Source: Micavibrio sp. UBA6145
GTDB taxonomy: Bacteria; Pseudomonadota; Alphaproteobacteria; Micavibrionales; UBA1664
Reading direction: 5' to 3'
DNA length: 64,000 nt
NCBI GenBank assembly: GCA_002423205.1
Contig: DIUZ01000020.1
Coordinates: 39,480 to 103,479 of the forward strand
Numbering within the stretch: position 1 is the stretch's first letter; every line of letters starts with the position of its first letter. Below the pieces are notes generated by a model. It made no database searches. It was not told the DNA's origin and saw only the letters and a list, made by a program, of their open reading frames with translations. A program made the translations under genes and the position numbers. Of the stretch, positions 1,433 through 62,722 are shown piece after piece.

Positions 1433-1471
1433 GTCTTGCCTTGGCTTAAGTATCAGGTATCAGTGTTATAA

Positions 1472-3604: not shown

Positions 3605-3607
3605 TGC

Positions 3608-12906: not shown

Positions 12907-14670
12907 TTGTGGAAAACGCACGCTTATGGGACCATTGCGCTGATGGGACACATCTTTTCCCGCCGCTGGCCCGTTCTGGTCCGGCTCGCTCTTATGCAGA
13001 TCATTCTTCAGACGGCTTTCATGCCGGGAATGGTGCCCCATGCCTATGCGCAAGTGGTGCCTGAAACTTTGCCTGGTCCGGCGGACGCCAACCGCATTTC
13101 GCCGCAACCTGAGCGCCGCCTGCCGCCACAGGACAGCAAGATGACGTTGCAGGATCAAAACCTGCCAGGCACGGAAATGCCGGAAGGTGCAGATCAAATT
13201 CACCTGACATTGAACGATGTCGTTTTCGAAAATGTAAATGCGTTCACCGCTAGTGAGCTTCGACCGCTTTATGCGGAGTATCTGGGCAAAGACATCACGC
13301 TCGACAAGGTGTATGGCATCGCAGGACGCCTGACGAAAATGTACCGCGAGCGTGGGTATTTCCTGTCGATGGCGTATGTGCCTGACCAGAAAATTGGCGG
13401 CGGCATCGTGCGCATTGCCGTGGTTGAGGGGCGCATTTCAGAGGTGGAAATGCAGGGAAACGCGCCGCAGGGCGGTGTTCTTTCGCGCTATGTTGCCTGG
13501 ATACAATCACGCCTGCCGGTGAAGTCGGATGAAGTCGAAAGTTTTCTTCTGCGCCTGAATGATGTCCCGGGTTATGATTTCCGCGCGGTGCTTTCACCGT
13601 TGCCGGATGCTGCGCCGGGGGCGGTCAAACTTGTGCTGGTCCCATCTAAAGAAAAAGGTCGCGGGCAGGTCAGTTTTGACAATTTCGGTTCGCGCTATCT
13701 TGGTCCTAATGAATTGTCAGTCTTTTATTCCAAAAGCCTGTTGCCTATGAGCCAGACATCCGTATCGGCGCTTGTGTCCGCACCTGCGGATGAACTTCGG
13801 TATTTTACGGCCGAGCATTCCGTTCTTGTTGCGCCGGATGTGCGCGTAAAAGTGGCCGGAAACATCACGCGTTCGACGTCGGGTTATCGTTTAAAAAACC
13901 TTGATATCAGGGGCGATTCCAGTGATGTAAGCGCCGCCGTCGAGTGGCAGCCGGTGCGCCAGCGCGACCGCAATGTCGTGTTGTCTTTCACGCTTGAGCG
14001 CCGGAACACCGAAACCGAATTGCTTGAAACGCCGTTTTCAAAAGACCGGGTCCGCGCCGCGCGTGCGGCCGTGCGTTATGACGGCCAGAATTATTTCAGC
14101 GGATATGATTTTGCGGAAGTGACGATGAGTCGTGGTCTTCCGATTATGGGAGCAAGCCGCGAGAATGATCCCGATGTATCGCGCCCGGAAGCTGAACCTG
14201 ATTTCAGCAAGCTTGAGGCGCGGATCACGCATCTGCACGACATGGGGCATGATCTGGTTCTGTCAGTATCTGGCGCGGGGCAAGTGGCATCAGGCCCCAT
14301 GTATGCGTCAGAAGAATTCGGATATGGCGGGCAAAGTTTTGGCCGTGCGTATGATTCATCGGAAATTACGGGCGATCATGGTATCGCGGCGGCGGCGGAG
14401 CTTCAGTATAACGGCCTTGATGTGGGTGATGTCTTTCAGGTCAACCCGTATGTGTTTTACGATGTCGGCCGTGTGTGGAACGAAGATGCAGGACAGCCGG
14501 AAACGGCATCTGGCGCATCGGCCGGTCTCGGCGTTCGGGGCAGTGTCCTGACCAAAACCAACTATAATCTGGGGCTGGCTTACCCGCTGACCCGCACCAT
14601 CAGTGCGCCGGTCTACGGCAGCGGTGAAGACGGACCCCGTATGTATGTTCAGGTTAACCGGATTTTCTAA
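12907..14670 (+). CDS. Two-partner secretion outer-membrane transporter (TpsB; ShlB/FhaC/HecB family)
   Basis: 587 aa with a signal-like N-terminus; an alternative ATG at 12943 is possible. POTRA region (LTLNDVVFENVNAFTASELRPLYAEYLGKDITL...IVRIAVVEGRISEV). C-terminal beta-barrel ending in an aromatic residue (VQVNRIF). It sits directly upstream of a TPS-domain exoprotein. Confidence 0.85.
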   Translation: MWKTHAYGTIALMGHIFSRRWPVLVRLALMQIILQTAFMPGMVPHAYAQVVPETLPGPADANRISPQPERRLPPQDSKMTLQDQNLPGTEMPEGADQIHLTLNDVVFENVNAFTASELRPLYAEYLGKDITLDKVYGIAGRLTKMYRERGYFLSMAYVPDQKIGGGIVRIAVVEGRISEVEMQGNAPQGGVLSRYVAWIQSRLPVKSDEVESFLLRLNDVPGYDFRAVLSPLPDAAPGAVKLVLVPSKEKGRGQVSFDNFGSRYLGPNELSVFYSKSLLPMSQTSVSALVSAPADELRYFTAEHSVLVAPDVRVKVAGNITRSTSGYRLKNLDIRGDSSDVSAAVEWQPVRQRDRNVVLSFTLERRNTETELLETPFSKDRVRAARAAVRYDGQNYFSGYDFAEVTMSRGLPIMGASRENDPDVSRPEAEPDFSKLEARITHLHDMGHDLVLSVSGAGQVASGPMYASEEFGYGGQSFGRAYDSSEITGDHGIAAAAELQYNGLDVGDVFQVNPYVFYDVGRVWNEDAGQPETASGASAGLGVRGSVLTKTNYNLGLAYPLTRTISAPVYGSGEDGPRMYVQVNRIF

Positions 14671-14951
14671 CCGGTCTTTAAGCCATAGTCAGGCTAAGCC
14701 CTTATATTTTCTGCATTTTATTACGAATCTGAAATAATGATCTGGCCATACCTTTGTAGGTTTTTGGCCCGGATTTTGTGCCTGTGGTGACGTAAAGCGC
14801 GAAATATGGGGTTTTCGGGTGAATTTAAGGGGGCTTTCTGTTTCCTTTTTAAGCTCAAAATTTGCTCAAAACCCATACTAAAGTTTAGGTCCTAAGTGCA
14901 TGATTTTCAAAATTAATTTCAGCTTTACCAATCCAGCGTAAACTTATCTTC

Positions 14952-17900
14952 ATGGAACTGCGTCGCCAGTTACTCACTACCAGCGCATTGTCGGTCATGG
15001 TTGCAAGTGCATTCATGCCGCACGCGCATGCGAACCCGATCGACGGTGTAGTGAGCGCTGGTTCCGCGGACATTGCGTCGAACGGCAAGACGCTGGACAT
15101 CACGCAGCATTCGGACAAGGCGATCATCGACTGGCGCGGATTTGACATCGCGCATGACGAGACCACTAACTTTTACCAGCCGTCTTCGAGTTCGATCATC
15201 GTCAACCGCGTGCATTCGAGCCAGGCATCGCAGATCGACGGTCGCCTGAACGCCAACGGCAATGTCATCATCATCAACCAGAACGGTCTTGTGTTCGGCG
15301 CGGGCGCTGTCGTTGACGTGCACGGGCTTGTGGTGTCGACCAGCGACCTGGACAACACGGCGTTCATGACCAACGCGCCGGTGCGCTTTACGCAGCCGGG
15401 TAATGTCAACGCCGCCATCGTCAATCACGGGACGATCACCGCGCATGACGCGGGCCTGGTCGGCTTCGTTGCGCCGCATGTCGAGAACCACGGTGTCATC
15501 ACCGCCAATCTGGGCCGCGTGCATCTGGCGACCGGCGATAAAGCCACCGTAGATTTTTACGGCGACGGGCTGATGGAGGTTGAGGCCAGCGACAGCCTGC
15601 AGAACCAGATCCTGAACCAGACCGGCACGATTATTGCCGACGGCGGCAAGATCGCATTGAGCGCATCTGCCGGCGGCGAGGTGGTGACCAGCATCATCAA
15701 CGCGCAAGGCACGATCCGCGCGCAGAGCGTGGGCGTTCATAACGGCGAGATCGTCATCGGCGCGAAGAAGAACGGCAAATCCAAGGTTAACATTGCGGGC
15801 AGCGTCGACGCATCAAGCGCCACGGGCAAGGGCGGCAAGATCACGGTTACGGCCGACCACATCGCGCTCAAACCCACCGCCAATCTGAACGCCTCGGGTC
15901 TCACCGGCGGCGGCACGATCAAGGTCGGCGGCGACAGGCACGGGCAGGGGGCGACCCCTAATGCAAAAACCTTAACCGTTGAGCAGGGTTCGTACATCGC
16001 CAACAATGCGCTCGATCTTGGCGACGGCGGCGAGACGGTGCTGTGGTCCGACCTGGTGACGTACTTCGCCGGTGGCATATCGGGCACGGGCGGTGCGAAT
16101 GGCGGCGACGGCGGCTTCGTCGAAGTGTCGGGTAAGGACCATCTGGAATACCAGGGCCATGTCGATCTCTCGGCGAATGAGGGTTATGACTTCGGCAACC
16201 TGCTGCTGGATCCGAGCGATATCATCATCTCATCGGGTGGTGATACGGGTGGTTCATTCACGAGCGGCACCTACACGGCGTCGGCGGGCGCATCGGTGAT
16301 CAACACCGCAACGCTGCAATCCCAGATCACGGCGGCCAACGTCACGATCAGCACGGCGGGCGGCACGGGCGGGAACGGCGATATTACGTTTGCTAACTCA
16401 GTTGCGTTCACGACGACCAGCCGCACGCTGACGCTGAATGCGGACCGGGACATCGTGTTCAACGCGAGCGCGGCCTGGACCGCGGGTAATGGCGGCTTCA
16501 CCATGACGGCCGCGCGCGATATCCTGTTTAACGCCAATGTTAGCGCCAATGGTTCGGGCTCGCTTTCGGCTATCGCCCAACGCAACGTGACGGTCGGCAA
16601 CGGTGTAACGGTGCGCAGTGCCAGCAGTGGTGGCACCATTCTTCGTGCAGCAGGTGGGGTTATCACGAATACAGGCGTGCTGACGAATAACGGTATTATC
16701 TCTGTCGGGACTGGCACGCTTTCGCTCATTTCAGGTTTAGATACGCTTGGTGAACGTGCAGATATCTCCTTGGATGGAGTGAACCTTCTTTATACGGGCG
16801 CGACAACAGGGTCGACAGGCGTAACAGGTTTTCGTGATGTGACCATCGGGCGTAATTTTTCAGCGACAGGTAGTCTGACTATCCAGGCCGAGCGTCACCT
16901 GACGATCAATAGCGGCGTCACGCTTTCTACGACGTCTACCGGCAATATAAACCTTAAAGCATCAAACACTGCCGGCATCAACGGACTTGGCTATCTTAGT
17001 AATTCAGGTACCGTTTCAGCCGGCACGGGCTCTTTTACGCTTGCGTCCGGTGTCGATGGTTCAGGGAACCGCCCGGATCTTGTTCTGAACAGCAGTCTTT
17101 ATTCCACCGGTGCTACTGTTACCGGTGTAGGCGTTACAGGTTTCCGCGACATCACGGTCGCACGCAATTTTACATCTACGGGCAGTATCACAATATCGGC
17201 CGAACGCGATCTTACGATCAATACCGGTACGGCACTGACAGCCGGCACCGCGGGTTCCATGCTGCTGAAGGCCGCCGCCACCAGTATCGCGAATGCCGGG
17301 GTCCTGACATTAAATGGTTCGCTCACGCTTGGGACGGGGACACTGAACCTGCAATCCGGCCTGGATACGCTGGGGAATCGCGCTGATCTTGTGCTTAATG
17401 GCACGAACACCTCAATTATCGGTGCGAATGTGGGCACTACAGTGATAACGGGTTTCCGTGACGTCACAGTCAATCGCAATCTTATCAGTGCTCTTTCTGT
17501 CAACATCAGCGCCGAGAGAAACCTGACGATTGGATCGGGGATTACCGTCGCCACTGGCGCTGCGGGCGGCATGACGCTTCGCGCATCGACGACCGCCGGC
17601 ATTGGTGGCACGGGCGTTCTGAACAATAATGGAACAGTATCGACAGGAACCGGAACTTTTGTGCTTCTGTCAGGCCTGGATACACTGGGTGAGCGCGTTG
17701 ATCTAAATCTGAATAACGCCACATGGGTTTCACAGGGTGCCAGCCATACGGGTATAAGCCTCACCGGCTTCCGCGATATCACGGTTAATCGTGATTTTAC
17801 GACTACCGGCAGTATCACCATGTCGGCAGAGCGTCATTTTACCAACAACGCTAACCTGACTTCTGGCGCTGCAAGCAGCATGCTTCTGAGAGCGGCAAGT

Positions 17901-20900
17901 TCGTCTGTTGCCAATATTGGTTTATGGAGCAATACGGGAACGATTACTGCCGGAAGCGCCTCGCTTGCTTTGCAGTCAGGCCGGGATTCTCTGGGCAACC
18001 GCGTTAATTTAAACCTGAACAATACATCCGATCTTGTTTTCCAGGGGGCGAGCTTCACTGGTGTTACCATCACGGGTTTTGGTGATGTTGTGGTCAACCG
18101 CGATATCACGTCCACAGGCAGCATCACGATTGCGGCGGAAGGCAGTATCACGAATAATGCGGTGGTGACTACAGGCGCTGCGGGCGCTCTTTCGTTTCGG
18201 GCGGCGACATCGTCGGTTGCGAATGTTGGTACCTGGACAAATAATGGCACGCTTTCTGTTGGAACGGGGACGCTTACCATTTCAGCAGGGGCGGACGGTT
18301 CTGGCGGCAGGCAGGATCTTGTGCTGAATAATGGATTTGTAACCAGGCAAGGCGCAAATTTCGGCTCTTTCACAGCGGTAGGATTCCGCGATATCACCCT
18401 TAATACGGATATCCTGTCCGCAGGCAGCGTTAACCTGACGGCAGAGCGTAACCTGACAGTCAATTCGGCGGTGACAACATCGCTCACCGGTGCTCTGCAT
18501 CTGCGTGCAGCCGGGGCACTTGTCACCAATCAAGGGGTTCTGACCTTAAATGCGCCTATCAGCACGGGCAGCAGCACCTTGGTGCTTTTGACGGGGCTTG
18601 ATACTACCGGCAACGCGACGACTGATCTTCTTATCAACAATGCGTTGTTGACCACGCAGAATGCAACTGTGGGCTCGATAAATATCTCGGGATTCCGTGA
18701 TCTTACAATTGATCGCGCCTTCAATTCTACCGGCTCCGTAACATTGACATCGTTGCGTGATCTAAATGTAAATGGACCGATCACATCATCCACTACATCA
18801 AATCTGACTTATACTGCGGGCAGGGATCTTGTCATTGGCGCAAGCCAGACGCTTACGAATTCAACATCTACAGCCGATATAGCCTTTTTGGCAGGCCGCC
18901 ATCTAACGATTAATAGCGGGGCTGTCATTAAATCCGGATTGATCGGAGCGACCACTATCCGTGCCGCGAATGCTGTCCTTACAAACCAGGGCGTTCTGAC
19001 GATCAATGGTACGATCAATGCCAGCACCGGCACCACAACACTTCTCAGCGGGCTTGATTTGTCGGGGAACCGTACAGCCGACTTCACTCTCAGCGACGCG
19101 ACGATGACTTACCAGGGCGCTGTGCAGGGGGCGCTTACGGTTACCGGTTTCCGCGATGTCACGGTTGCGCGTAATCTTACATCAAGCACCACGAATATCA
19201 CGGCCGAACGCAACCTGACTATTAATCCCGGCGTCAGCCTTACGGCGACGACAACCGGCACATTCACATTCAGGGCGGCTGGCGGCCTATCTACCAATAC
19301 AGGAACGCTTGTGTTATCTGGCGCCACGATCAGCGTGGGCACGGGGGCGCTCACCCTGGTCAGCGGTATGGATGAATCAGGCAATCGTACGGATCTTACA
19401 TTGGATAACAGCAACCTGACCTTTCAGGGGGCCAATATGGCTGCTTTGAGTCTGAGCGGGTTCCGCGACATCAATCTTGCGCGTGATATCACCATCGGCG
19501 GATCCAGCACCATTACCGCAGAGCGCAATCTGAATGTGGTGACCGGTGCCACTTTGACAACGAACATCAATACACTGGTTTTGCGGGCGGCGGGCAATAA
19601 CACTAACAATATTGGCGCCCTTACAATTGATGGCAATATCACTACCGGTGCGGCCTCGATCACGCTTGTGAGCGGTCTGAATGCCGATGGTACGCGTAAT
19701 GATCTTACGCTCAGCAACAGCAATTTCACTCTAAGTGGCGCGAATATGAACGCGCTGAGTATTTCTGGTTTCCGTGATGTGACTTTCGCCAGGAATATAA
19801 TGTTTAATGGTACACTGAGTGTGGTTGCGGAGCGCAACGTCAATGTCAATGGCGGCGTAAACCTTACCTATGGCGGCACCAATATCACCATGTCCCTGCG
19901 GGCAGGGGGTGCAACGTCCGTAAACGAGGGCGCGATCAACATTGACGGCGTTCTGACGGCTGGCACGGCGGGCACGCTTACGCTAGCAACGGGCACGGAT
20001 TCCACCGGTGCGCGTACCCAAGACCTTGTGCTGGACAGTGCCCGTTATGTGATGACGGGGTCCGATATCGGCCGTCTGACCGTCACGGGATACAGGGATA
20101 TTACTTTTGCATCCGATTTTACGTTCGGTAACATTATAAGCGTGATAGCCGAGCGTAACCTGACGGTAAACAGCGGCGTCACACTTACGGGCGGGCCGAC
20201 CCAGGGCTTCCTTTTGCGTGCAGGGGGCGAAAACTCCGTAAATATCGGTACATTGACCCTGGACGGAAAAATCATTTTTGGCAGCGGCGGTACATTTACG
20301 CTTGGCAGCGGTTTTGATAATTCCGGTCTGACGCGCGGCGCAGATCTTGTGCTTAACAGCAGCAATTTTGCGATGCGGGGTGCCACTGCGGGGGGGCTTG
20401 CCATCTCTGGTTTCCGTGATGTCACGCTGAACACTAATTATAACTCCGCCAGCACAATAAACGTTGTTGCCGACCGTAATCTGACGATTGGCAATGGCGT
20501 TACGCTGTCCAGCGGCGGTACAGGCAGCATGATTTTGGCAGCCGGTGGCACGGATGGAGTGAATGCAGGTATCCTGACGAATAACGGCACTGTGCGTGTG
20601 GTCGGTGCCCTGTTTGCGCAATCCGGTGCCAATTCACTGGATGCCGGTGCAGACTTTGTGTGGGACGGCGTGCGTTACAGTATGCTGAATTCCAGCCTAT
20701 CGGGCGGCGTAACAGTAAAGGGTTTCCGCGACGCCATATTCAGTGCAAATATTTCTGCTACTGGTCATTCCGACATTACGGCGCAGCGTGACGTGATCAT
20801 TGATTCCGGGGTCATGTATAATGTAGTGGGAAATTGGAATTTTACCGCTGCCGCTGCCAATAACGTAACGCAGAACCGTGGTCAGTTCATCAATAACGGC

Positions 20901-21926
20901 ACACTCGTGATGGGCGGTACCGGTTCTATCAGTCTTTCGTCGGGTAAGGATGCAGGCGGATTGTACAGTGACTTCATCTGGGACAATGGCGGCCGCTACG
21001 TTACGCCGAATGCGAATATTTCCGCTTTCTATCTGGCTGGTTTCCGTGACATCACAATTGCACGTGATATCACGGCAACCAGTCATGTTTACCTGAAGGC
21101 CGACCGTAACGTTACGATTGCCAGCGGCACGACGGTCCGGGCAGGTACGACGACCAAGCTTACCGCGGCCAATAGTGATGTAAACGCGCAAGGCGTTATC
21201 CGTGTTGATGGGACGCTGTATTACGGCGGCAGCGGAGAGTTGACATTCCGGAGCGGTTTGGATTCCAGCGGCAACCGCGTTGACCTGGATCTGGGCAGCA
21301 GCAACTTTATCAAGAATGCCGGTGCAGGATATTCCGAGGTTGAGATCAAGGGCTTCCGTGACGTAACCATTCCGGTCAGCCTGTCTTCATCGTCGACGAT
21401 ATTGCTTGAGGCTTACCGCACGCTGACGCTGGACGCGGGCGCTACGCTGAGCAGTGCCACCGGCACAACCGTTTACGCTAAAGACGCCTTTGTAAACAAT
21501 GCCGGCGCAGGCGTATTTGGCGGGGCGGGGCGCTGGCTGGTGTACAGCACATCGGCGCAGAAAAACGTCAATGGTGGTTTGGCTTACGGTTTTCAGGCAT
21601 TTAGCTGTACATATGGCGCAAGCTGCGCCGGGCTTTCGGGCAGCGGCAGTGGCTTCATTTATACAATCAGTGATCCAGACAGCATCCTGGCCAGAATCCG
21701 TAATATTACGGGCGGTGGATTGCCGGATACGATTGTCCGCACCTCGCAGAATTTCAGCGCCAATCATGCGGCCACGCCCGGTACATCGACGACACCGTCC
21801 AATTTTGGCAGCAATGTAATAGTCAATGCGGTATCACCCGCGGGCGGTTACGTGCAGACCGATTACATGCTGACATTCTCGCCGGATCTGGCACAGCGTT
21901 TCGAGCTTGAAGAGTGGTTGTTCTGA
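14952..21926 (+). CDS. Very large TpsA exoprotein: filamentous-haemagglutinin-type TPS secretion domain, long beta-helical repeat region and an unknown C-terminus
   Basis: 2324 aa with a signal peptide (…SAFMPHAHA/NP). TPS domain at aa ~28-150 (ITQHSDKAIIDWRGFDIAHDETTNFYQPSSSSIIVNRV...GRLNANGNVIIINQNGLVFG). Then Gly/Thr/Asn/Ser-rich repeats follow. Confidence 0.85.
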   Translation: MELRRQLLTTSALSVMVASAFMPHAHANPIDGVVSAGSADIASNGKTLDITQHSDKAIIDWRGFDIAHDETTNFYQPSSSSIIVNRVHSSQASQIDGRLNANGNVIIINQNGLVFGAGAVVDVHGLVVSTSDLDNTAFMTNAPVRFTQPGNVNAAIVNHGTITAHDAGLVGFVAPHVENHGVITANLGRVHLATGDKATVDFYGDGLMEVEASDSLQNQILNQTGTIIADGGKIALSASAGGEVVTSIINAQGTIRAQSVGVHNGEIVIGAKKNGKSKVNIAGSVDASSATGKGGKITVTADHIALKPTANLNASGLTGGGTIKVGGDRHGQGATPNAKTLTVEQGSYIANNALDLGDGGETVLWSDLVTYFAGGISGTGGANGGDGGFVEVSGKDHLEYQGHVDLSANEGYDFGNLLLDPSDIIISSGGDTGGSFTSGTYTASAGASVINTATLQSQITAANVTISTAGGTGGNGDITFANSVAFTTTSRTLTLNADRDIVFNASAAWTAGNGGFTMTAARDILFNANVSANGSGSLSAIAQRNVTVGNGVTVRSASSGGTILRAAGGVITNTGVLTNNGIISVGTGTLSLISGLDTLGERADISLDGVNLLYTGATTGSTGVTGFRDVTIGRNFSATGSLTIQAERHLTINSGVTLSTTSTGNINLKASNTAGINGLGYLSNSGTVSAGTGSFTLASGVDGSGNRPDLVLNSSLYSTGATVTGVGVTGFRDITVARNFTSTGSITISAERDLTINTGTALTAGTAGSMLLKAAATSIANAGVLTLNGSLTLGTGTLNLQSGLDTLGNRADLVLNGTNTSIIGANVGTTVITGFRDVTVNRNLISALSVNISAERNLTIGSGITVATGAAGGMTLRASTTAGIGGTGVLNNNGTVSTGTGTFVLLSGLDTLGERVDLNLNNATWVSQGASHTGISLTGFRDITVNRDFTTTGSITMSAERHFTNNANLTSGAASSMLLRAASSSVANIGLWSNTGTITAGSASLALQSGRDSLGNRVNLNLNNTSDLVFQGASFTGVTITGFGDVVVNRDITSTGSITIAAEGSITNNAVVTTGAAGALSFRAATSSVANVGTWTNNGTLSVGTGTLTISAGADGSGGRQDLVLNNGFVTRQGANFGSFTAVGFRDITLNTDILSAGSVNLTAERNLTVNSAVTTSLTGALHLRAAGALVTNQGVLTLNAPISTGSSTLVLLTGLDTTGNATTDLLINNALLTTQNATVGSINISGFRDLTIDRAFNSTGSVTLTSLRDLNVNGPITSSTTSNLTYTAGRDLVIGASQTLTNSTSTADIAFLAGRHLTINSGAVIKSGLIGATTIRAANAVLTNQGVLTINGTINASTGTTTLLSGLDLSGNRTADFTLSDATMTYQGAVQGALTVTGFRDVTVARNLTSSTTNITAERNLTINPGVSLTATTTGTFTFRAAGGLSTNTGTLVLSGATISVGTGALTLVSGMDESGNRTDLTLDNSNLTFQGANMAALSLSGFRDINLARDITIGGSSTITAERNLNVVTGATLTTNINTLVLRAAGNNTNNIGALTIDGNITTGAASITLVSGLNADGTRNDLTLSNSNFTLSGANMNALSISGFRDVTFARNIMFNGTLSVVAERNVNVNGGVNLTYGGTNITMSLRAGGATSVNEGAINIDGVLTAGTAGTLTLATGTDSTGARTQDLVLDSARYVMTGSDIGRLTVTGYRDITFASDFTFGNIISVIAERNLTVNSGVTLTGGPTQGFLLRAGGENSVNIGTLTLDGKIIFGSGGTFTLGSGFDNSGLTRGADLVLNSSNFAMRGATAGGLAISGFRDVTLNTNYNSASTINVVADRNLTIGNGVTLSSGGTGSMILAAGGTDGVNAGILTNNGTVRVVGALFAQSGANSLDAGADFVWDGVRYSMLNSSLSGGVTVKGFRDAIFSANISATGHSDITAQRDVIIDSGVMYNVVGNWNFTAAAANNVTQNRGQFINNGTLVMGGTGSISLSSGKDAGGLYSDFIWDNGGRYVTPNANISAFYLAGFRDITIARDITATSHVYLKADRNVTIASGTTVRAGTTTKLTAANSDVNAQGVIRVDGTLYYGGSGELTFRSGLDSSGNRVDLDLGSSNFIKNAGAGYSEVEIKGFRDVTIPVSLSSSSTILLEAYRTLTLDAGATLSSATGTTVYAKDAFVNNAGAGVFGGAGRWLVYSTSAQKNVNGGLAYGFQAFSCTYGASCAGLSGSGSGFIYTISDPDSILARIRNITGGGLPDTIVRTSQNFSANHAATPGTSTTPSNFGSNVIVNAVSPAGGYVQTDYMLTFSPDLAQRFELEEWLF
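16412..21560 (+). repeat. In-frame array of ~16 diverged tandem super-repeats (~103-107 aa each) inside tpsA
   Basis: G-[FY]-[RG]-D anchor codons lie at 16827, 17139, 17451, 17766, 18075, 18381, 18690, 19146, 19458, 19767, 20088, 20409, 20721, 21039 and 21351. The spacings are 312, 312, 315, 309, 306, 309, 456, 312, 309, 321, 321, 312, 318 and 312 nt. Unit consensus is roughly GFRD(I/V)T(V)xR(N/D)(F/I)TSTGSITISAERNLTINSG... . DNA identity between units is only ~60% by eye. Confidence 0.8.
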
Positions 21927-46840: not shown

Positions 46841-47389
46841 TTAGATGACGGGGATCGCTGGTGCGGTGGACCGGGTGGCCCGAATGATGGCTTCGCTGGT
46901 CATGCATGCGCCTGCGCCCATCATGACGGGATCATTCAGCACGACCCCCGAACCCAGAAGCGACAGGCCGCCCGCCATCGACAGGCCTGTATGTGTGCTG
47001 CTGGCGATGTCGTTGTAGCGGCGCTTGATGTTCGCGGTCAGGATTGTGCCCTGGCTTGCGGCCATCAGCACGCCACCGACAAAATATGCAGGGTCGGCAA
47101 TGCCGGCACCAATACCGGCCACCATGGCAGCACCAAAAGTTGCGCCCGCGTTGCCGATAATTTCCAGACGTCCGCCAAGCGGTATTTGTTTTTTGCGCAC
47201 GACGCTGAATGCTTCCATCAATGCGCCGGCAGCCATGAAGCCGCCACCGATTGAAATGATCGGATGGGCATCTGAAAGGGCAAGCGCCGTGCCGGCGAGA
47301 ACCTTGAATGTGGGGGAAACCAGTTTGCCGACGGATGCAGCGAGGTGATTGAATGTGTTTTTCATGATGGGAAAATACGCCCCACCCAT
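46841..47389 (-). CDS. Hypothetical Gly/Ala-rich membrane protein
   Basis: 182-aa ORF with an alternative ATG at 47365. It has GxxxG/glycine-zipper-like stretches ([26 protein letters not shown]). I recognise no family. Confidence 0.4.
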
Positions 47390-49205: not shown

Positions 49206-50600
49206 TTAGATATGAATCGGGCGGCCGTCGACGGCGAGTGCCGCTTCCTTGACCGCTTCGTTCAGTGTCGGGTGTGCGTGGCAGATGCGTGCGATGTCTT
49301 CCGCCGAACCGCCGAACTCCATGATCGTGACGATTTCCGCAATCAGCGTACCCGCTTCGGGGCCGAGGATATGCGCGCCCAGAACGCGGTCGGTCGTGGC
49401 ATCCGCCAGAATTTTGACGAACCCGTCGGTCGAGCCGATGGCACGTGCGCGGCCGTTGGCCGTGAACGGGAATTTGCCGACCTTGTAGGCGGTGCCGGAT
49501 TCTTTCAACTGTTCTTCGGTTTTGCCGACCGATGCGATTTCAGGCCATGTGTACACAACACCCGGGATAGCATCGTAATCGATGTGGCCGGATTGACCCG
49601 CCAGCATTTCAGCCAGAACGACGCCCTCGTCTTCGGCCTTATGCGCGAGCATCGCGCCCCTGATCACGTCACCGATGGCGTAGATGCCAGGCACGCTGGT
49701 TTCGAAGTGATCGTTCACATCCACGCGGCCACGATTGTCGAGCGTGACGCCGACTTTATCAAGGCCCAGCGTTGCTGTGTGCGCTTTGCGGCCGACAGCC
49801 ACAAGGACGACATCGGCGTTCAGCGTTTCCGCCTTGCCGCCGGCGGCGGGCTCGACGGTCAGGGCGACGCCCTTCTTGCCGGTTTCGGCACCGGTGCATT
49901 TGCTGGACAGCTTAAATACGATGCCCTGTTTTTCAAGGACGCGTTGCGCCTGCTTGGCGGTTTCGAGGTCCATGCCGGGCAGGATGCGGTCGAGATATTC
50001 AATCACGGTGACCTTGGCACCCAGACGACGCCAGACGGTGCCGAGTTCGAGACCGATGACACCCGCACCGATGACGATCATTTCGTCCGGCACTTTTTCC
50101 AGCGTCAATGCGCCGGTGGAGGACACGATTTGTTTTTCGTCGATCGTAATGCCCGGCAGCGGCGTTACGTCGGAGCCGGTGGCAATGACAATGTGTTTGG
50201 CGGCGTATGTTTCGTCGCCGACCTTGACCTGACCGGCGGCAGGGATTGATCCCTCACCCTTCAGCCAGTCGATCTTGTTTTTCTTCATCAGGAATTCGAT
50301 GCCCTTGGTGTTGTCCGCAACGACCTTGGACTTGAACGCCATCATGGCGGCTAGATCGAGTTTCAGCGAACCGATCTTGATGCCGAAATCGGCGTAGTGA
50401 TGACCGGCACCTTCGAATTTTTCAGATGATGACAGCAGCGCCTTGGACGGTATGCAGCCGACATTCAGACATGTGCCGCCGAGCGTGGCGCGCTTTTCAA
50501 CGATCGCGGTTTTCATGCCCAGCTGGGCACAACGGATGGCGCAGACATAACCGCCGGGGCCGGAACCGATTACGATGACATCATAGGATTTTTCGGACAT
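49206..50600 (-). CDS. lpdA: Dihydrolipoyl dehydrogenase, second paralogue
   Basis: The ORF track starts at 50636. The ATG at 50600, preceded by AAGGAA, gives [18 protein letters not shown]...[13 protein letters not shown]...HAHPTLNE. Confidence 0.9.
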
Positions 50601-50683: not shown

Positions 50684-53620
50684 TTACGCGAGGCGCAGGG
50701 CCCGTTTTTTGTCCGGGGCTTTGCGCGGTTCTGTCCAGGGGGCGTTGGCAGGAATATAGATTTCGCCGGGTTTGAGCGCCTTTTGCATGGCGGCGCGTGA
50801 TTTCATAAGAATATCCAGCGCCTGTTCCTGTCTGTCAACGACATGGACGTTGAGGCGAATCATTTCGTCATTGCTCATCATATTTATAAGCGGATCAAAG
50901 ACGCGGATACCGTCAATCTGTTCATTCACGATGACGAGCGGGCGATTGGACACCGGCATGATGCCCCATTGGCGCATCAGGATGGATGCGGCGATTTCCT
51001 GGATGGAACCGGCACCGCCGGCCATCAGGATTTCGGCATCCGTGTTCATCAGGTGCGCCATGCGCTGTTCGATCACTTCGAAAATGCGCGCGTCGTCATT
51101 GTCCTTGTGCCAGCCGCCTTCGCGTTCAAACGTGTCGTGGCACTGATAGGACGTGACATGGTTGCGGGGCATTTCTTCGCGGCGATCGCGACGCCAGTCG
51201 CGGCGCGCCTGGTGGACGCCTTCGGATGTGGCGACCATCAGGCCTTCTTTACCGCCACCATTGATCAGCGAAAAACCGTTCTGCGCGAGGCTATAGGCAA
51301 AAGCATGCGCGTTTTTGCACGCGTCGGTTTCCTTGCCCAGCGAGGCGGAGCAGTAGACGGTCACGCGATACAGATCCGCGGGCATTTCGATGCCGTCGTC
51401 TTTTTCAACGATGCCCTTTTCCGTGATTTTCGGGCGGATATAACTGGTGTTGAATTTTTTTAGGCCCCTGCGCAGCGCGGTGCCTGATGTATACACGCCC
51501 ATGATGTCATCCTGGCGATTATTGAGCAGCGGCGTCTGCGCCAGATGGTGGAAGATATTTTCCTGGGCCGCCCATGATGTATTGCCTGTCAGATGGCCAA
51601 AGAATTTAGCCTTGATCGCGCGGTCATCGACCTGTTTTCCCACCACGAGAGAGTAATACAGAAGTGTCTTAAGCCATTTAATACCTGAGAAATTATAGAG
51701 TTTGTGGCTGTCCTCGGTCAGCAGGAAACCGTCGGCTTCTTTATACAAGGCGCGCAAGCGATTCAGAACGCTTTCGGCCTTCTGGCGATGCGTGTCGCCA
51801 GTGCGGGTTGTGTCACGCAACAGGGGGCCTTTGTTGCGGAATTCAGCCATGCTGAAACGGCTGCCGTTGCCGGACATCATTTTAAATGCACCGGTAACAA
51901 TGCGATGCATACGACGATTGCCGTGGCCGTAAATGTCTGCAAACAGGGTGTGAAGACTTGCGATACGGTAGTTTTGCTTACCGCTTGCGGCGGCATTGAA
52001 TTCCAGATTGAAATTCGAAAGATTTTTGCTGTGCTCGCTCACGCCGGTTACGTCGCTGAGCGCGCGGATTGAACCGACCACTTCGGAGTGCGTTTCGATG
52101 TAGCCATCGATTTCAGCCTTTGTGCGGCGCTGTTTCGGTGGTAAGTGGCCGTCGAAAGCCGTCGGCACTAGATAATGGTCCGTCTGGAAAGCCTGAATTC
52201 GCTTGCCGCGCGCATCAAGGGTCGGCGATGGGTGGGTGCGTGCCGTTGATTGCACCTTTGCCATGGTTGCGATGTAACGCAGGTTCTGCTCTTTCAGCCA
52301 GTCAAGGCGCACCGCAATGTGGCAGGCGGTGTCATTGACTGTAAGGTCTGCAGCTTTGGCGTTTTCTTTGCTTTCAATTTCCGTGACTGCGCCGGCAAGC
52401 ATGTCTTCAAACAGACGGGTGCGCGACACGGTTTTAAGGATGCCTGCCAGTTCGGCCCCGGGACCCGGTTTCAGCAGATACGGGTTGAGCAATGGGCGGA
52501 TGGGATCAAACGCGCGCGCATCCATGATGCGGTAGTCGAGGAATTCAAGACCGCGATCATCAAACATCAGCCAGACATTTTCAGGGCGCTTGCCATTCGT
52601 GCACAGGGCCGCGGCCACTTTGTCGTAGCCTTCATCGCGGATACGGTCGACAACGGATTGCAGCTTTTCCATGTTGTTGCCCTCAAGGCTGCAACTGGTT
52701 TCGTCTGCTTCGCGGGGTTTTACATCAATGACCGAGTTAAGCGAGTAAACGTTGACGCGCGCGCGCAGCGTGGCAAAGGCCGCGCTGATTTCCTTGGATT
52801 TGTGCGGCGAACCTGATGCCACGTAAATCGTGTCCCCGGGCATGATGCTGGCATCCATTCGGTCACAGCCTGGGGGGGTGTGTCTATCTGGCAGGTTTTT
52901 GAGAACCTGAAGCGTCGATGACGTGCCTTCATCGGCGGTTTCATTGCCACCAGGATAATGGGTGATGTGAACGCCGTACGCTGCCAGAAGCGGATCGTTC
53001 GCGCTTATGCCAATGGCGTCCAGCAAAGGATTCCAGAAACCGTTATGCGTATTCTGGATGATCAGTGCGGTATCTTTTGCGCGTCCATCGTTTGTAAGTT
53101 TTGCATAGAGGATGTGCAGCGCCTGACGCAGGCTGTGCATGTCGCCACGCGTAAGGATCAGGGCGCCTGCGTCTTCGCATTGTTCAAGCGGATCGCTTGT
53201 GTCGAAATTGCCGGTGCGCGAGAGATTGCGGAAATATGGATCGAGGCCAAGGACCTTGTAATTAAAAACGCCGTCATTGCTGGCGGCGCTATCGAGAACT
53301 TGTCGGCGTTGGGTCAGTTCCTGCGAAATCGGATGAACCCATGTCTTGCCCTTATATCGCGCGAGCGCTGTGTCGGACGGGTCTTCACCTGGGAGATAAA
53401 CATACGACGCAGGCGCTTCGGTCAGGAACCCGTCATTCCACATTCGGGAAAGGAGAGGGATAAGTTCTTTGGGATATTCGGTCGGTTTATCCCCGCGGCA
53501 GATTGCCTCCACGGGTCGGAGAAGAAGCTGGATTTTTGCGGCCACCTGTTCTGCGGTGGCGCCAGTCAGTATTCTTTGTCCCGTCACGTCCCTGTTTCCC
53601 ATGAGCCAGTAGTTATGCAA
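50684..53620 (-). CDS. 978-aa multidomain nucleotide-processing protein: degenerate LOG-like N-region, Ham1/ITPase-like middle domain, C-terminal LOG (TIGR00730-type) domain
   Basis: The C-terminal aa ~752-935 read VYCSASLG...LINGGGKEGLM...AEILMAGGAGSIQEI...PLVIVN...FDPL. The middle aa ~263-521 have Ham1-like blocks (IYVASGSPHKSKEI, EADETSCSLEGNNMEK, LMFDDRGLEF, FQTDHYLVP...TKAEID...THSE). The N-terminal aa ~150-205 read ALILTRGDMHSLRQAL...ALIIQNTHNGFWNPLLD. The start is ambiguous, either TTG at 53620 or ATG at 53602. Confidence 0.55.
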   Translation of the reverse strand: MHNYWLMGNRDVTGQRILTGATAEQVAAKIQLLLRPVEAICRGDKPTEYPKELIPLLSRMWNDGFLTEAPASYVYLPGEDPSDTALARYKGKTWVHPISQELTQRRQVLDSAASNDGVFNYKVLGLDPYFRNLSRTGNFDTSDPLEQCEDAGALILTRGDMHSLRQALHILYAKLTNDGRAKDTALIIQNTHNGFWNPLLDAIGISANDPLLAAYGVHITHYPGGNETADEGTSSTLQVLKNLPDRHTPPGCDRMDASIMPGDTIYVASGSPHKSKEISAAFATLRARVNVYSLNSVIDVKPREADETSCSLEGNNMEKLQSVVDRIRDEGYDKVAAALCTNGKRPENVWLMFDDRGLEFLDYRIMDARAFDPIRPLLNPYLLKPGPGAELAGILKTVSRTRLFEDMLAGAVTEIESKENAKAADLTVNDTACHIAVRLDWLKEQNLRYIATMAKVQSTARTHPSPTLDARGKRIQAFQTDHYLVPTAFDGHLPPKQRRTKAEIDGYIETHSEVVGSIRALSDVTGVSEHSKNLSNFNLEFNAAASGKQNYRIASLHTLFADIYGHGNRRMHRIVTGAFKMMSGNGSRFSMAEFRNKGPLLRDTTRTGDTHRQKAESVLNRLRALYKEADGFLLTEDSHKLYNFSGIKWLKTLLYYSLVVGKQVDDRAIKAKFFGHLTGNTSWAAQENIFHHLAQTPLLNNRQDDIMGVYTSGTALRRGLKKFNTSYIRPKITEKGIVEKDDGIEMPADLYRVTVYCSASLGKETDACKNAHAFAYSLAQNGFSLINGGGKEGLMVATSEGVHQARRDWRRDRREEMPRNHVTSYQCHDTFEREGGWHKDNDDARIFEVIEQRMAHLMNTDAEILMAGGAGSIQEIAASILMRQWGIMPVSNRPLVIVNEQIDGIRVFDPLINMMSNDEMIRLNVHVVDRQEQALDILMKSRAAMQKALKPGEIYIPANAPWTEPRKAPDKKRALRLA

Positions 53621-53624
53621 ACTG

Positions 53625-53654
53625 GTTATAGAAAATTTATGCAGCTCTTGTCAA
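53625..53654 (-). promoter_or_regulatory. Possible sigma-70-type promoter (TTGACA-N18-TATAAC) immediately upstream of the 978-aa gene
   Basis: On the minus strand, TTGACA lies at 53654..53649 and TATAAC at 53630..53625. The -10 element ends only ~5 nt before the TTG at 53620, implying a leaderless or very short-leader mRNA. Confidence 0.3.
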
Positions 53655-53758
53655 AATCTGCTTTTGAAGTTTTTTACCCTGTTTTTCAGCCGCTTGCGAG
53701 TCCGCCAAGACCCCTTACTCACAGGGGGTTTTAACGGTTGGGAAAAGACCAATTTGAC

Positions 53759-54214
53759 TTAGGCCCCACCCCAGTCTTCAAGCCATAAATCAGGCTTTTC
53801 GTCGATAAACTTGCGACAAAGCGCAATGCAGTCCGGGTCGTTCACTTCAATCACTTCGACGCCGCGTTCGCGCAAAAGCACCTCGTTCCCGCTGGAATTG
53901 GTGGTGTCGCCGACGACGACTCGTTGAATCTTGAACTGCAGGATCGTGCCCGTGCACATCATGCAGGGGCTTAAGGTCGTGTACATGGTGGTATTGCGGC
54001 GGCTTTTCATACGGCCTGCGGCGCGCATGGCGGCCATTTCGCCGTGGATGATGGGGTTACCCTCCTGGACCAGGGCGTTGTGCCCCTCACCCAGGATTTC
54101 GCCGGTTTCATTGTCAACGATGACGCCGCCAATGGGGCATCCGCCCTCGTTATAGCCTTTCAGGGCTTGTTCGTAGGCGCGGCGCATATACACTTCGTGG
54201 GATTGATATGTCAT
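53759..54214 (-). CDS. Fcy1-type cytosine deaminase (CDA/dCMP-deaminase zinc-binding fold)
   Basis: 151 aa that aligns by eye along its full length with yeast Fcy1 (EGGCPIGGVIV...GEGHN...IHGEMAAM...MYTTLSPCMMCTGTIL...VVVGD...CRKFIDEKPDLWLEDWG). HxE and PCxxC motifs are intact. Confidence 0.8.
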   Translation of the reverse strand: MTYQSHEVYMRRAYEQALKGYNEGGCPIGGVIVDNETGEILGEGHNALVQEGNPIIHGEMAAMRAAGRMKSRRNTTMYTTLSPCMMCTGTILQFKIQRVVVGDTTNSSGNEVLLRERGVEVIEVNDPDCIALCRKFIDEKPDLWLEDWGGA

Positions 54215-54235: not shown

Positions 54236-55204
54236 ATGGCTTTAGCAGATACCGCACTCATCCTTCAATACATGCAACAGGCCGTTGACGTCGTCCTGAC
54301 GGGCGAACATGCCGACAGCAAGGTTTCCGCCTGTGCTTTCCACCCGGAACAACCCGAGATTCCCGCCGTCGCCACGGTCAGCGCCCGCCCGGATTGCCTG
54401 AAAGGTCACTTTGCCTGGGATGCCCGCATCGGTGCGTCCAGCCAGTTTATTCATGCGGAGCTTGCCGCGCTTTTGAAATTCGGCGGCAATTTACGCGGTG
54501 CGCATGTCTGCGTGACCGATCCGTTCTGTCCCAACTGCGCCAAGAACATGGCCGAGGCCGGCGTGCGCGCCATCTATATCGACCATAAAGGCTTTCAGAA
54601 AGACTTCATCGCGCGGAATGGCGACGAATTCAAAACCATGTCCATGCTGATCGCTGAAAAGGCGGGCATCAGTGTTTTTGAAGTCAACCGCAAGGCGGGC
54701 ACGGTTACGCCGATTTTGGACCAGCAGGCAACCACTCGCCCCGCATCTACGGCAATTGAATTTTTTGATATTGCGGACGGCATGACGCTGGAAAGTGCTA
54801 TGCAGACATTTAAAAACCGTCTTGGCACGCGCGAAGCATGGACGCTGGCGTTTGTTAAAGAACGCGACGGCAGTCCGCGCGGGCTTCTGGTGTTCGAGGC
54901 ATTGCCGCCGGGCATCACACCCGAAGATTACCGCACGCGCGGCACGGATACCGGCAAATACCGTTTTCCCATCGACCCGCTGACACGGCTTGGCATCATT
55001 ACGCGACGCATGGGTATGACATTGCTCGATCCGCGTATAGGTTGCGCACGGCTTCCGTCGTCGCGCTCGCTTGTCAACGCGCTGGGCATGGGTATATCAA
55101 ACCTGTTACTGGCCTCGGCCCAGCCAGACCATGATCCGCTCGGTCTGGCCGCAATCACCCTGTTGCGGGATAAAAAGATTTTGAACGTATCGGAGATGAC
55201 ATGA
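54236..55204 (+). CDS. Two-domain protein: N-terminal dCMP/ComEB-type deaminase domain plus a ~170-aa uncharacterised C-terminal domain
   Basis: The ORF track starts at 54044, inside the opposite-strand deaminase. I use the ATG at 54236, with 54272 as an alternative. Motifs are FIHAELAAL (HAE) and DPFCPNCAKNM (PCxxC). The C-terminal half has no motif I recognise. Confidence 0.55.
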   Translation: MALADTALILQYMQQAVDVVLTGEHADSKVSACAFHPEQPEIPAVATVSARPDCLKGHFAWDARIGASSQFIHAELAALLKFGGNLRGAHVCVTDPFCPNCAKNMAEAGVRAIYIDHKGFQKDFIARNGDEFKTMSMLIAEKAGISVFEVNRKAGTVTPILDQQATTRPASTAIEFFDIADGMTLESAMQTFKNRLGTREAWTLAFVKERDGSPRGLLVFEALPPGITPEDYRTRGTDTGKYRFPIDPLTRLGIITRRMGMTLLDPRIGCARLPSSRSLVNALGMGISNLLLASAQPDHDPLGLAAITLLRDKKILNVSEMT

Positions 55205-55665
55205 AAAAACTTTTGATGATTGCCGCGGCCGTTCTGGCTTTAAGCGCCTGTGACCAAAACCCGCAGGAGGCCCGCGAGCGCGCGACCAATGCCAATGAGG
55301 CCGTTGAAGTCCCGTCTGTTTCAGGCGCATCGACACCGGCGCAAGCAACACCGCAGGCGCAATCAGGCGTCGTTGGCGGCGCGATGGTGAACACGCCCGT
55401 GTCCAGCAGCTCACCCGCCATGCAAAACACGCCTGCGCCAACCGTTGCGCAGGCAACGGCGCAGGCTGGCTCACCCGCAAGCACATGCGGGGCGGATCAG
55501 TCATGGGTAGGGCAGCCGCTAAAATCCATCGACTTAAGCAAAATCACCGGCGTGATCCGGACAATTTATCCGAACCAGCCGGTGACGATGGATTACAGCG
55601 ATCAGCGCCTGAACATCATTCTTGAGCCCGGCACCGATAAGGTGCTGGAAGTGAAGTGCGGTTAA
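55201..55665 (+). CDS. Lipoprotein with a C-terminal peptidase-inhibitor-I78-like domain
   Basis: 154 aa with a lipobox (VLALSAC/D) and a low-complexity Ala/Pro/Gln linker. The C-terminal region reads [12 protein letters not shown]...[37 protein letters not shown]. Its ATG overlaps the upstream stop (ATGA). Confidence 0.55.
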
Positions 55666-57134
55666 CGCGCGAGCGTTTTTGCCGCTTCCTTCGTGGTATG
55701 CACAGCCGACGATGAGCGTTGCACCGCCTCGGCGATATTGACCACATTCTCGCTGATGGACGTTACGGCATCTGATGCGTGCTGCATGTTGGAAGAAATT
55801 TCGCGTGTCACGGCTGATTGCTCTTCCACTGCGCTTGCGGTGCCGCTGACGTAACTTTCGACGGATTCGATGCTTTTCTTGATTTCGTTGAGCGCATTGA
55901 CGACGCCTTCAGATACTTTCTGAATGCCTTCGATTTCACGCGAAATCTGTTCCGTGGCATCGGCTGCCTGCTTGGCCAGGTTTTTAACCTCGTCGGCAAC
56001 GACGGCAAATCCTTTGCCAGCGTCGCCCGCACGCGCTGCCTCAATCGTGGCATTGAGCGCAAGAAGGTTAATCTGTCCCGCAATGTTTTGAATGAGGGTG
56101 ATGATACCGCCCATGGATACGGCGGCGGCGTCGAGTTTTTGTGTCGACTGATCGGCCCGGGCCGTCTCGATCATCGCGCTTTTCACGGCTTCCAGTGACT
56201 TGACCATGCTGGACGAAATCTCCTGCACGGATGCGGTCATTTCCTCCGCGCCGGTTGCGATGGCCTGCATGTTGCTGGCGCTTTGCTGGGCGGCATGTGC
56301 CGCGTTTGATGCCTGACGATCCGTGTCTGTAACGGCAAGATCGATTTCACCAATGTTGCTGTCGATCAGTTTCTGGACATTCTCCAGCAATTCAATCTGT
56401 TTGGTGATGTCGGTGGCATATTTGACGACTTTGAAGGGTTTGCCATTCATATCCATGATCGGGTTATACGATGCCTCGATCCAGATCACCTTGCCGCCTT
56501 TGCCTATGCGCTTGTATTGGCCGGCGTCATATTTTCCACTGGCAAGCTTGCGCCAGAATTCGGCGTATTCGGGTGAGCGTGCATAGACCGGGTCTACAAA
56601 CATGGAATGGTGCTGGCCCTGTACTTCATCCAGCGTGTAGCCGACGGCGTTCAGGAAGTTGGGATTGGCGGTGATGATCGTTCCGTCGAGATTGAAATGG
56701 ATTACGGCCTGCGCCTTGTCGATGGCGGATAATTGACCCTCGGCGTCAGCGGCTTCAAGTTTTCGGGCCGTGATGTCGGTCGCAAATTTTACGACCTTGT
56801 ATGTCTTGCCGTTTTTGTCTTTGACCGGATTGTAGGTTGCCTGGATCCAGATTTCGCGCTGGCCTTTGCCAAAGCGTTTGTATTCGGCAGAATCGAAATT
56901 TCCGGCGGCCAGATTTTTCCAGAAATCGGCATATTCGGCTGACTGGGCATAGGCCGGGTCGACAAACATTCTGTGATGTTTGCCGCGCACTTCATCGAGC
57001 GTGTAGCCCATGGCGCTTAGAAAATTTTCGTTTGCCGTCAGGATCGTGCCGTCCGGCGTGAATTCAATGGCGGCCAGAGAGTGACCAATGGCGCGCAGCG
57101 TGTTCAACGCATGCGTTTTTTCTTTGCTAAACAA
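55662..57134 (-). CDS. Soluble methyl-accepting chemotaxis protein with tandem PAS domains
   Basis: 490 aa with no TM segment. Two ~120-aa PAS units are ~65% identical to each other ([27 protein letters not shown]... and [27 protein letters not shown]...). The MCP signalling domain reads [31 protein letters not shown]. Confidence 0.85.
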
Positions 57135-62638: not shown

Positions 62639-62722
62639 TGGTGCCCCAGGAGGGACTTGAACCCCCACACCTTTCGATACCTGATTTTGAGTCAGGCGCG
62701 TCTACCATTTCACCACTGGGGC
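62639..62722 (-). tRNA. tRNA-Leu (anticodon CAA), CCA encoded
   Basis: The minus strand reads GCCCCAG-TG-GTG-AAATGGTAGA-CGC-G-CCTGA-CTCAAAA-TCAGG-TATCGAAAGGTGTG-GGGGG-TTCAAGT-CCCTC-CTGGGGC-ACCA. That gives a 7-bp acceptor stem, a long variable arm and a GTTCAAGT T-loop. Confidence 0.9.

Follow-up and report, generated by a model that had tools for sequence, protein, structure and literature searches.

A divergent Ham1-LOG fusion protein of Micavibrio-like Alphaproteobacteria as a candidate bifunctional nucleotide hydrolase

We analysed a stretch of 64,000 nucleotides from the assembly of Micavibrio sp. UBA6145 (GenBank accession no. GCA_002423205.1; contig DIUZ01000020.1, positions 39,480 to 103,479 of the forward strand), here called the window, and focused on a minus-strand gene in which a Ham1/ITPase-like domain and a C-terminal LOG domain are encoded in one polypeptide. 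We propose that the product is a bifunctional cytoplasmic nucleotide hydrolase with a lineage-specific housekeeping role, which would take a nucleoside triphosphate (NTP) through the monophosphate (NMP) to free base and ribose-5-phosphate; we put the chances of this proposal at about even. RdgB and ITPA convert NTP to NMP and pyrophosphate, LOG and PpnN cleave NMP to base and ribose-5-phosphate, and the product class of Ham1 enzymes is thus the substrate class of LOG enzymes. No paper describing a fusion of LOG/phosphoribohydrolase with Ham1/ITPase was found in the literature searched, a search that did not extend to the 2015 SLOG survey. This agrees with the original prediction, made by a model from the sequence alone, that no characterised protein is known to have such an architecture. 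The four-module arrangement appears to be undescribed and to be built from known enzymes. Residues are numbered throughout on the 978-aa version of the protein, which opens with the TTG codon at 53620.

An exhaustive HMMER search of 1.84 billion representatives (E ≤1e-3) yielded a family of 125 clusters at 50% identity, most of them 880 to 1000 aa in length and aligning end to end. With domain HMMs, the window protein and those of loci L016, L017 and L023 were resolved as a long form consisting of an N-terminal module (N), Ham1, a middle module (Mid) and LOG. The short form of 650 to 790 aa (L018 to L021) consists of Ham1, Mid and LOG without the N module. Because this unit is kept in both forms, we consider Ham1, Mid and LOG to be the conserved core. 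The named sources are all uncultured Alphaproteobacteria ("Micavibrio sp.," "Rhodospirillales bacterium" and "Alphaproteobacteria bacterium PRO2"), with one bin labelled Patescibacteria, and all members are named in databases as "hypothetical protein" or "predicted Rossmann-fold nucleotide-binding protein." The full-length AlphaFold2 model of the window protein, built on an alignment of 70 sequences, is confident and compact (pLDDT 91.6, pTM 0.90). The domain-profile and AlphaFold/Foldseek checks of each segment that had been suggested with the original prediction recovered both the Ham1 and the LOG fold, and the N module was without a fold relative.

The residues that do not vary across the family belong to the two putative active sites. 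Mean column identity among 70 long-form members is 17%, and only ten columns are invariant. Five of these are in the Ham1 domain (K274, E307, N315, K319 and D355, corresponding to the Lys, the Glu, the (E)GNxxEK motif and the DDxG motif) and five in the LOG domain (A759 in strand 1, G788 of GGGxxGxM, the catalytic Arg R853, and G871 and E875 of GGxGTxxE). All ten are also present in 16 of 16 short-form variants examined. More broadly, 20 of the 26 positions conserved at ≥90% fall within 79 canonical motif residues (hypergeometric P of about 2e-18, for motif blocks drawn after the alignment had been viewed, though the motifs were known a priori).

The LOG domain (TIGR00730/PF03641; minus strand, 50741 to 51385, aa 746 to 960) has a catalytically complete motif set: VYCSA(759)S, INGG(788)GKEGLM(795), EQR(853)M and AGG(869)AG(871)SIQE(875). 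The last motif carries P-to-A and T-to-S changes relative to PGGxGTxxE in the window copy; the consensus across the family reads GGxGTxQE. With the window protein as the only query, Pfam Lysine_decarbox (PF03641) matched barely above its cutoff (E = 4e-6; 27.4 bits against 27), TIGR00730 matched below its curated cutoff (E = 1e-11; 44.6 bits against 96.35), and SLOG LDcluster4 gave an E value of 2.5e-5. At the family level, a LOG match was obtained in 47 of the 52 members scanned (best E = 4e-18), and the family profile retrieved the LOG structure 2a33 from the PDB at an E value of 9e-22. Foldseek on the model returned the LOG structures 5zbl, 3qua, 3sbx and 2a33 at target-normalised TM scores of 0.77 to 0.83. 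The predicted C-terminal LOG domain, originally placed at about aa 752 to 935, is therefore borne out by Pfam, TIGR00730, the family profile and Foldseek. The C-terminal 215 aa have the same fold as the type I LOGs of C. glutamicum (5ZBL), M. tuberculosis (Rv1205; 7W2I) and Arabidopsis (2A33), with which they share GGGxxGxM, GGxG(T/S)xxE and the catalytic Arg and Glu. Those LOGs are stand-alone proteins of approximately 180 to 220 aa, whereas here LOG forms the C-terminal quarter of a chain of four modules and approximately 970 aa, has an insert of approximately 30 aa after the second helix, and is accompanied by two LOG-half-like relics elsewhere in the chain.

The central Ham1/ITPase-like domain (minus strand, 52031 to 52858, aa 255 to 530) was recognised by weak Pfam and NCBIfam matches, by the family profile and by Foldseek. 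Its motifs are SGSPHK(274)skE, E(307)tSxSxEGN(315)NxEK(319), FDD(355)RG and PG(388)AE(390)L. Ham1p_like (PF01725) matched 23 of the 52 scanned members at E <0.01 (best E = 2.8e-8). In the PDB, the family profile matched the dITP/XTPase 6wwd at E values of 1.3e-5 to 1.8e-5, as well as 3tqu and, weakly, the HAM1-like protein KomB. Foldseek matched the model to 1vp2 (TM 0.77), 6wwd, RdgB (1k7k/2pyu) and KomB (9v0g; TM 0.70), with E values between 7e-5 and 4e-4, and K274, E307, N315, K319 and D355 align with the Ham1 residues of 6wwd, 3tqu and 1vp2. The Ham1 region originally claimed at about aa 263 to 521 thus holds at the family and fold levels and is weak for the window sequence alone. The large insertions and altered FGYDP block that had been noted are likewise real in the model and profile alignment. 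Compared with the Ham1/RdgB/ITPA proteins of approximately 190 aa (E. coli RdgB 1K7K/2PYU, TM0159 1VP2 and M. abscessus 6WWD), the domain has the same fold (TM up to 0.77) and keeps the GNxxK-type Lys, the Glu, and the (E)GNxxEK, DDxG and PG motifs, including the catalytic Asp. It differs from them in its length of approximately 275 aa with inserted helical segments, in its fusion to LOG, and in the C-terminal base-recognition motifs, which are substituted in place: FGYDP by (Q)TDHYLVP and SHR by xSE(V/M). The Asp-Pro and His-Arg of these motifs are not conserved in the family. Because both motifs are replaced, specificity for ITP or XTP should not be assumed. With fold and catalytic motifs shared but several curated scores missed, we regard the protein as a divergent member of both the LOG and the Ham1 superfamilies and as an equivalog of neither.

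The two remaining modules appear to be partly LOG derived. The N module (minus strand, 52871 to 53602, aa 7 to 250) occurs in the long form only, has a helical first half and a beta-alpha second half, and carries the family-specific conserved residues G43, G125 and W196; modelled alone with AlphaFold2, it reached a pLDDT of 91.5. Part of its second half (52892 to 53176, aa 149 to 243) aligned by hhalign with the C-terminal half of the family LOG slice (probability 97.9%, E = 4.9e-13, 80 columns). The counterpart of PGGxGTxxE in this segment is degenerate (TRGDMHSLRQ, with Glu replaced by Gln). The Mid module (minus strand, 51386 to 51988, aa 545 to 745) was matched by domain HMMs in both long and short forms and has the family-specific motif SLVVGKQ(663)VDD. 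Its second half (51443 to 51763, aa 620 to 726) resembles the same LOG half (probability 94.1%, E = 1.3e-7) without the catalytic motif, and the PDB profile search gave a secondary weak LOG match at profile positions 593 to 647. Neither relic segment retains the PGGxGTxxE motif, and control alignments of the two against the Ham1 slice gave probabilities of 0.3% or less. The degenerate LOG halves originally suspected at about aa 150 to 205 and 625 to 700 therefore find profile-profile support; what did not follow is a significant PDB fold match for the N module on its own. We rejected the possibility that the N module is a full degenerate LOG domain, as it has no PDB fold match and its LOG-like profile signal is confined to the last ~95 residues. 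The module as a whole is thus no recognisable LOG fold, and its helical first half was assigned to no known family. Within one compact particle, the N and Mid modules would most likely provide a scaffold, a partner for a pseudo-dimer or allosteric elements.

In the proposed pathway, the Ham1 domain would first hydrolyse an NTP, giving NMP and pyrophosphate, and the LOG domain would cut the N-glycosidic bond of that NMP to release free base and ribose-5-phosphate. The net effect would be irreversible removal of the nucleotide with recovery of the ribose-phosphate. We infer that both activities are present and act in sequence because the active sites are conserved, the domain order is constant and the model is compact. 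The substrate would probably be a purine and probably a noncanonical or modified one; since the replaced base-recognition motifs speak against plain ITP or XTP, a modified or damaged purine nucleotide seems a fair candidate. Because the protein has no hydrophobic transmembrane segment (maximum 19-aa Kyte-Doolittle score of 1.41) and no signal-peptide-like N terminus, it is expected to be soluble and cytoplasmic. Its role could be pool sanitising or catabolic (salvage), as a vertically inherited gene of Micavibrio-like Alphaproteobacteria and not a mobile defence gene. The two consecutive nucleotide-degrading steps envisaged in the original prediction are thus a reasonable idea as judged from sequence: the architecture was called correctly, and neither catalytic set varies in any of the 70 long-form or 16 short-form members.

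Should the two activities prove real and coupled, the protein would be the first single chain described to degrade an NTP all the way to free base and ribose-5-phosphate. It would provide an irreversible route of disposal or salvage, unlike the usual house-cleaning that ends at the monophosphate. The proposal gives a testable function to approximately 125 clusters of large "hypothetical proteins" from poorly studied small-genome Alphaproteobacteria, some labelled Micavibrio, and the relic modules would be an example of LOG-derived half-domains recycled as noncatalytic parts. A bolder version, which we regard as tentative and rather doubtful, is a substrate-channelling demolition machine for modified or noncanonical purine nucleotides and hence a new sanitation or salvage route. 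In predatory Micavibrio-like bacteria, such nucleotides could, for example, stem from prey or from RNA of the cell itself; the relic modules would rebuild the LOG dimer interface within one chain or gate it allosterically, and an adjacent long-form dCMP-deaminase-like enzyme would supply the same pathway.

Several observations weigh against a bifunctional housekeeping hydrolase. The Pfam Ham1 match of the window protein is poor (E = 0.005; 17.2 bits, below the cutoff of 22.5) and covers profile positions 1 to 58 only. The replacement of FGYDP and SHR may leave room for nucleotide binding without turnover, as far as the alignment indicates. The N module found no significant fold match in the PDB by Foldseek (best E = 0.27), and fusion by itself is no proof of sequential coupling or channelling. 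The protein has also diverged to a degree that is unusual for a core enzyme, being 29 to 34% identical between loci where TadA is 88 to 95% and Lpd 81 to 84% identical; in L012, for example, the identities are 95% for TadA, 84% for Lpd, 89% for KdsA and 29% for the fusion protein. In a simple NG86 estimate from one sequence pair (the window and its 92% identical relative L014), dN was 0.038 in the fusion gene and 0.003 to 0.013 in the flanks, that is, amino acid change was 3 to 14 times faster, and dN/dS was 0.076 compared with 0.009 to 0.049 in the housekeeping flanks.

The divergence affects all modules. LOG is the best conserved, Mid is the least conserved region and its first half is the worst. 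As dN/dS is 0.076 and no domain of the gene exceeds 0.11, the fusion gene is functional and under purifying selection. Constraint is relaxed outside the catalytic residues, and nothing indicates that positive selection is pervasive. As the source of the extreme divergence, allele swapping and diversifying selection were both considered and judged unnecessary, since the 3- to 14-fold rate roughly accounts for identities of approximately 30% where Lpd stands at approximately 80%.

Four other explanations were weighed, and we discuss them in descending order of probability. The first, which we think unlikely, is a regulated nucleosidase in which the Ham1 module senses a nucleotide and switches LOG on or off, reshaping nucleotide pools, for example, when a predator passes from one growth phase to the next. 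PpnN itself is under alarmone (ppGpp) control, and the title of PDB entry 9hs1 ("partial alarmone form") is consistent with this regulation. In the fusion protein, the base-recognition motifs no longer match those of ITPases, and the two extra noncatalytic LOG-like modules could serve allostery. The structural and weak profile matches to KomB point the same way: KomB is the HAM1-like dITP sensor of the Kongming antiphage system and has a HAM1 fold and a nucleotide-degrading effector logic in common with the fusion protein. Kongming is also a precedent for HAM1 as a sensor, with KomB binding dITP (bioRxiv 10.1101/2024.12.20.629578). However, sensor-type HAM1s (KomB, Kongming) invariably carry His in place of the catalytic Asp, and KomB-clade HAM1s pair with the SIR2 protein KomC and reside in defence islands or mobile elements (bioRxiv 10.1101/2024.12.20.629578). 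The fusion family instead keeps D355 and all Mg- and phosphate-binding residues invariant and lies in a chromosomal housekeeping context, and no SIR2 gene was present in any neighbourhood examined, nor any other effector partner. Because the catalytic Asp is invariant, unlike in KomB, the Ham1 domain looks like an active pyrophosphatase; HAM1 would then be an enzyme here and a dead sensor there. More improbable is a protein with two independent activities on unrelated substrates (e.g., house-cleaning of ITP or XTP together with an AMP or cytokinin-type nucleosidase), fused for coexpression or stability. Conservation of both active sites would suit this arrangement, but the Ham1-Mid-LOG order is maintained down to approximately 20% identity, the model is compact at a pTM of 0.90, and one domain yields the class of compound on which the other acts.

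We give only a slight probability to an enzyme that, like LOG, frees a cytokinin-like or other modified purine base from a nucleoside tri- or monophosphate as a signal. The characterised role of the LOG family is indeed that of a cytokinin riboside 5'-monophosphate phosphoribohydrolase, and one short-form homologue lies two genes downstream of MiaA (tRNA isopentenyltransferase). This adjacency was seen at a single locus with otherwise housekeeping flanks (DegP, HAD hydrolase and IlvB/IlvN/IlvC), no isopentenyltransferase is near the other loci, and nothing else suggests signalling. Least likely of all, we believe, is a conflict or defence effector acting as a nucleotide-depleting toxin against phage or prey. 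Nucleotide depletion is a known defence strategy, and the original prediction had raised an antiphage role with metabolic scavenging as an equally live alternative. In favour of defence are the amino acid divergence far above that of the flanks, a prophage approximately 2.5 kb from one homologue, and weak matches, none of them anywhere near the cutoff, between the deaminase-family neighbour and the "anti-phage dCTP deaminase" model. Against it, no PADLOC-DB family matched the fusion protein at E values up to 1, and in approximately 20 neighbourhoods examined, no defence genes or mobile-element hallmarks adjoined the fusion gene. The gene keeps a fixed, vertically inherited slot among housekeeping genes while the protein ranges from 28 to 92% identity, its GC content matches that of the flanks (uniform at 0.53 to 0.58), its dN/dS is low in every domain, and its product lacks a secretion signal. 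Viral structure libraries gave single-domain matches only. The conflict framing is thus contradicted by these data, which fit the metabolic or scavenging alternative better.

A housekeeping context might also have indicated an ordinary PpnN/YgdH orthologue of known function, which the original prediction named as an outcome that would undo it. We did find a conserved housekeeping context; the protein, as judged by its alignments, is not a PpnN orthologue and has no known function to inherit. PpnN (E. coli 6GFL; approximately 455 aa) acts in nucleotide-pool control, is built from several domains around a LOG core like the fusion protein, and is the nearest functional analogue of the second step. 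Only the LOG core aligns, over approximately 107 profile positions (E = 2.5e-5) or approximately 225 structural columns, and the TM score normalised to PpnN is 0.35 to 0.37. The PpnN-specific N- and C-terminal domains are not found in the fusion protein, and PpnN has no Ham1 domain.

The gene order in the window is enolase, KdsA, an uncharacterised open reading frame (ORF), XerC, DUF484, Lpd, the fusion gene and TadA, followed by the divergent dCMP-deaminase-like gene, I78, MCP, Ugd and UvrA. The fusion gene has same-strand neighbours on both sides. Upstream is TadA (tRNA adenosine-34 deaminase; minus strand, 53759 to 54214; Pfam dCMP_cyt_deam_1 E = 4e-25, NCBIfam TadA E = 8e-22), and downstream is Lpd (dihydrolipoamide dehydrogenase; minus strand, 49206 to 50600; Pfam Pyr_redox_2 E = 2e-72), with no terminator-like site found by scanning the gap between the fusion gene and Lpd. 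For related loci, we searched with an alignment of 14 closer sequences. The slot between TadA and Lpd recurs in all nine loci that span it, and in the wider family, the fusion gene lies between sucB and lpd. Two distant members have other settings: one is located among flagellar genes, a Formyl_trans_N formyltransferase and an Ogt-type methyltransferase, and the other, a short form, with a DegP-type protease, a HAD hydrolase, MiaA and IlvB/IlvN/IlvC. The flanks of the window are 90 to 97% identical at the protein level to those of L005, from a metagenome-assembled genome (MAG) labelled Micavibrio.

The recurrent neighbours of the fusion gene are nucleotide enzymes, namely, the dCMP-deaminase-like protein, TadA and, in some loci, a PfkB kinase, which precedes the deaminase-like gene in L022 and L023. 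In the window, the divergently transcribed deaminase-like gene (plus strand, 54272 to 55204) encodes a 310-aa protein of the long-form dCMP-deaminase/ComEB type, in which the HAE...FCPNC motif is intact and approximately 180 C-terminal residues form an extension that was not assigned to any family; it matched T4 dCMP deaminase 1vq2 at an E value of 3.6e-4. Such neighbours recur divergently at 310 to 340 aa with HAE...(F/P)CxxC intact, also beside distant and short-form family members, and are part of a larger group in which at least 354 alphaproteobacterial MAG proteins named "deoxycytidylate deaminase" were counted. We rejected an obligate partnership, as the deaminase-like gene is also found without the fusion gene, and a functional link between the two is suggestive only. 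The gene of an I78 peptidase-inhibitor-domain protein (plus strand, 55201 to 55665 in the window) accompanies the deaminase-like gene in many loci. In L022 (positions 682 to 4120), the slot between sucB and lpd is without the fusion gene and holds a 561-aa protein, a YmdB-type phosphoesterase and a metallo-beta-lactamase-fold protein that matches the Anti-Pycsar Apyc1 family. Domain HMMs showed the 561-aa protein to be unrelated to the fusion protein, and we discarded it as a candidate reduced homologue. L016, which carries the most distant long-form homologue, contains a prophage-like block at positions 13070 to 18498 (S24 repressor, head-tail connector, T7-like capsid and Phage_capsid_2) approximately 2.5 kb downstream of that homologue; PurS, an HhH-GPD glycosylase, NAD kinase and a phosphoribosyltransferase lie in between.

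The stretch from 50684 to 53620 forms a single ORF of 978 codons on the minus strand, opening with TTG at 53620, and the plus-strand reading of the same stretch is riddled with stops. The minus-strand translation fits the residue numbers of the original prediction, which gave no strand. The true start is probably the ATG at 53602 (M7), because all aligned homologues and the called gene of the 92% identical relative start there and because a promoter-like site ends just upstream, at 53625. From this start, the Ham1-LOG fusion gene extends from 50684 to 53602 (minus strand, stop codon included) and encodes 972 aa. The promoter-like site is a sigma-70-like candidate (TTGACA-18 nt-TATAAC; minus strand, 53625 to 53654) read from the sequence immediately 5' of the fusion gene, in the spacer between it and TadA. 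It is a near-consensus match alone, overlooked by the automated scan since its -10 hexamer ends in C. L014 has the identical site and the 68% identical relative L005 a conserved one of equal spacing, but it is not found in L001; the promoter and terminator scan was otherwise at about the level of shuffled sequence. Just past the stop codon of TadA is a small hairpin (CCCCT-gtgagta-AGGGG; minus strand, 53711 to 53727), which is also conserved in L014 and L005 and lacks a T-run. It could mark a transcript end or a processing point that parts TadA from the fusion gene.

Other features of the window were noted in passing. Between KdsA and XerC, a 182-aa ORF without a Pfam match (minus strand, 46841 to 47389) is conserved in position and evolves fast (omega of 0.149; 38% identity in L005, compared with >90% for the flanks). 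The minus strand at 55662 to 57134 encodes a chemoreceptor of the soluble type that combines two PAS domains with an MCP signalling domain. The sole RNA gene found in the window is a tRNA-Leu (CAA) gene (minus strand, 62639 to 62722), and no Rfam family besides tRNA reached its gathering score in the window. On the plus strand, a two-partner secretion (TPS) pair consists of a ShlB/FhaC-type TpsB (12907 to 14670) followed by a TpsA exoprotein of 2324 aa (14952 to 21926) with the TPS secretion domain at its N terminus.

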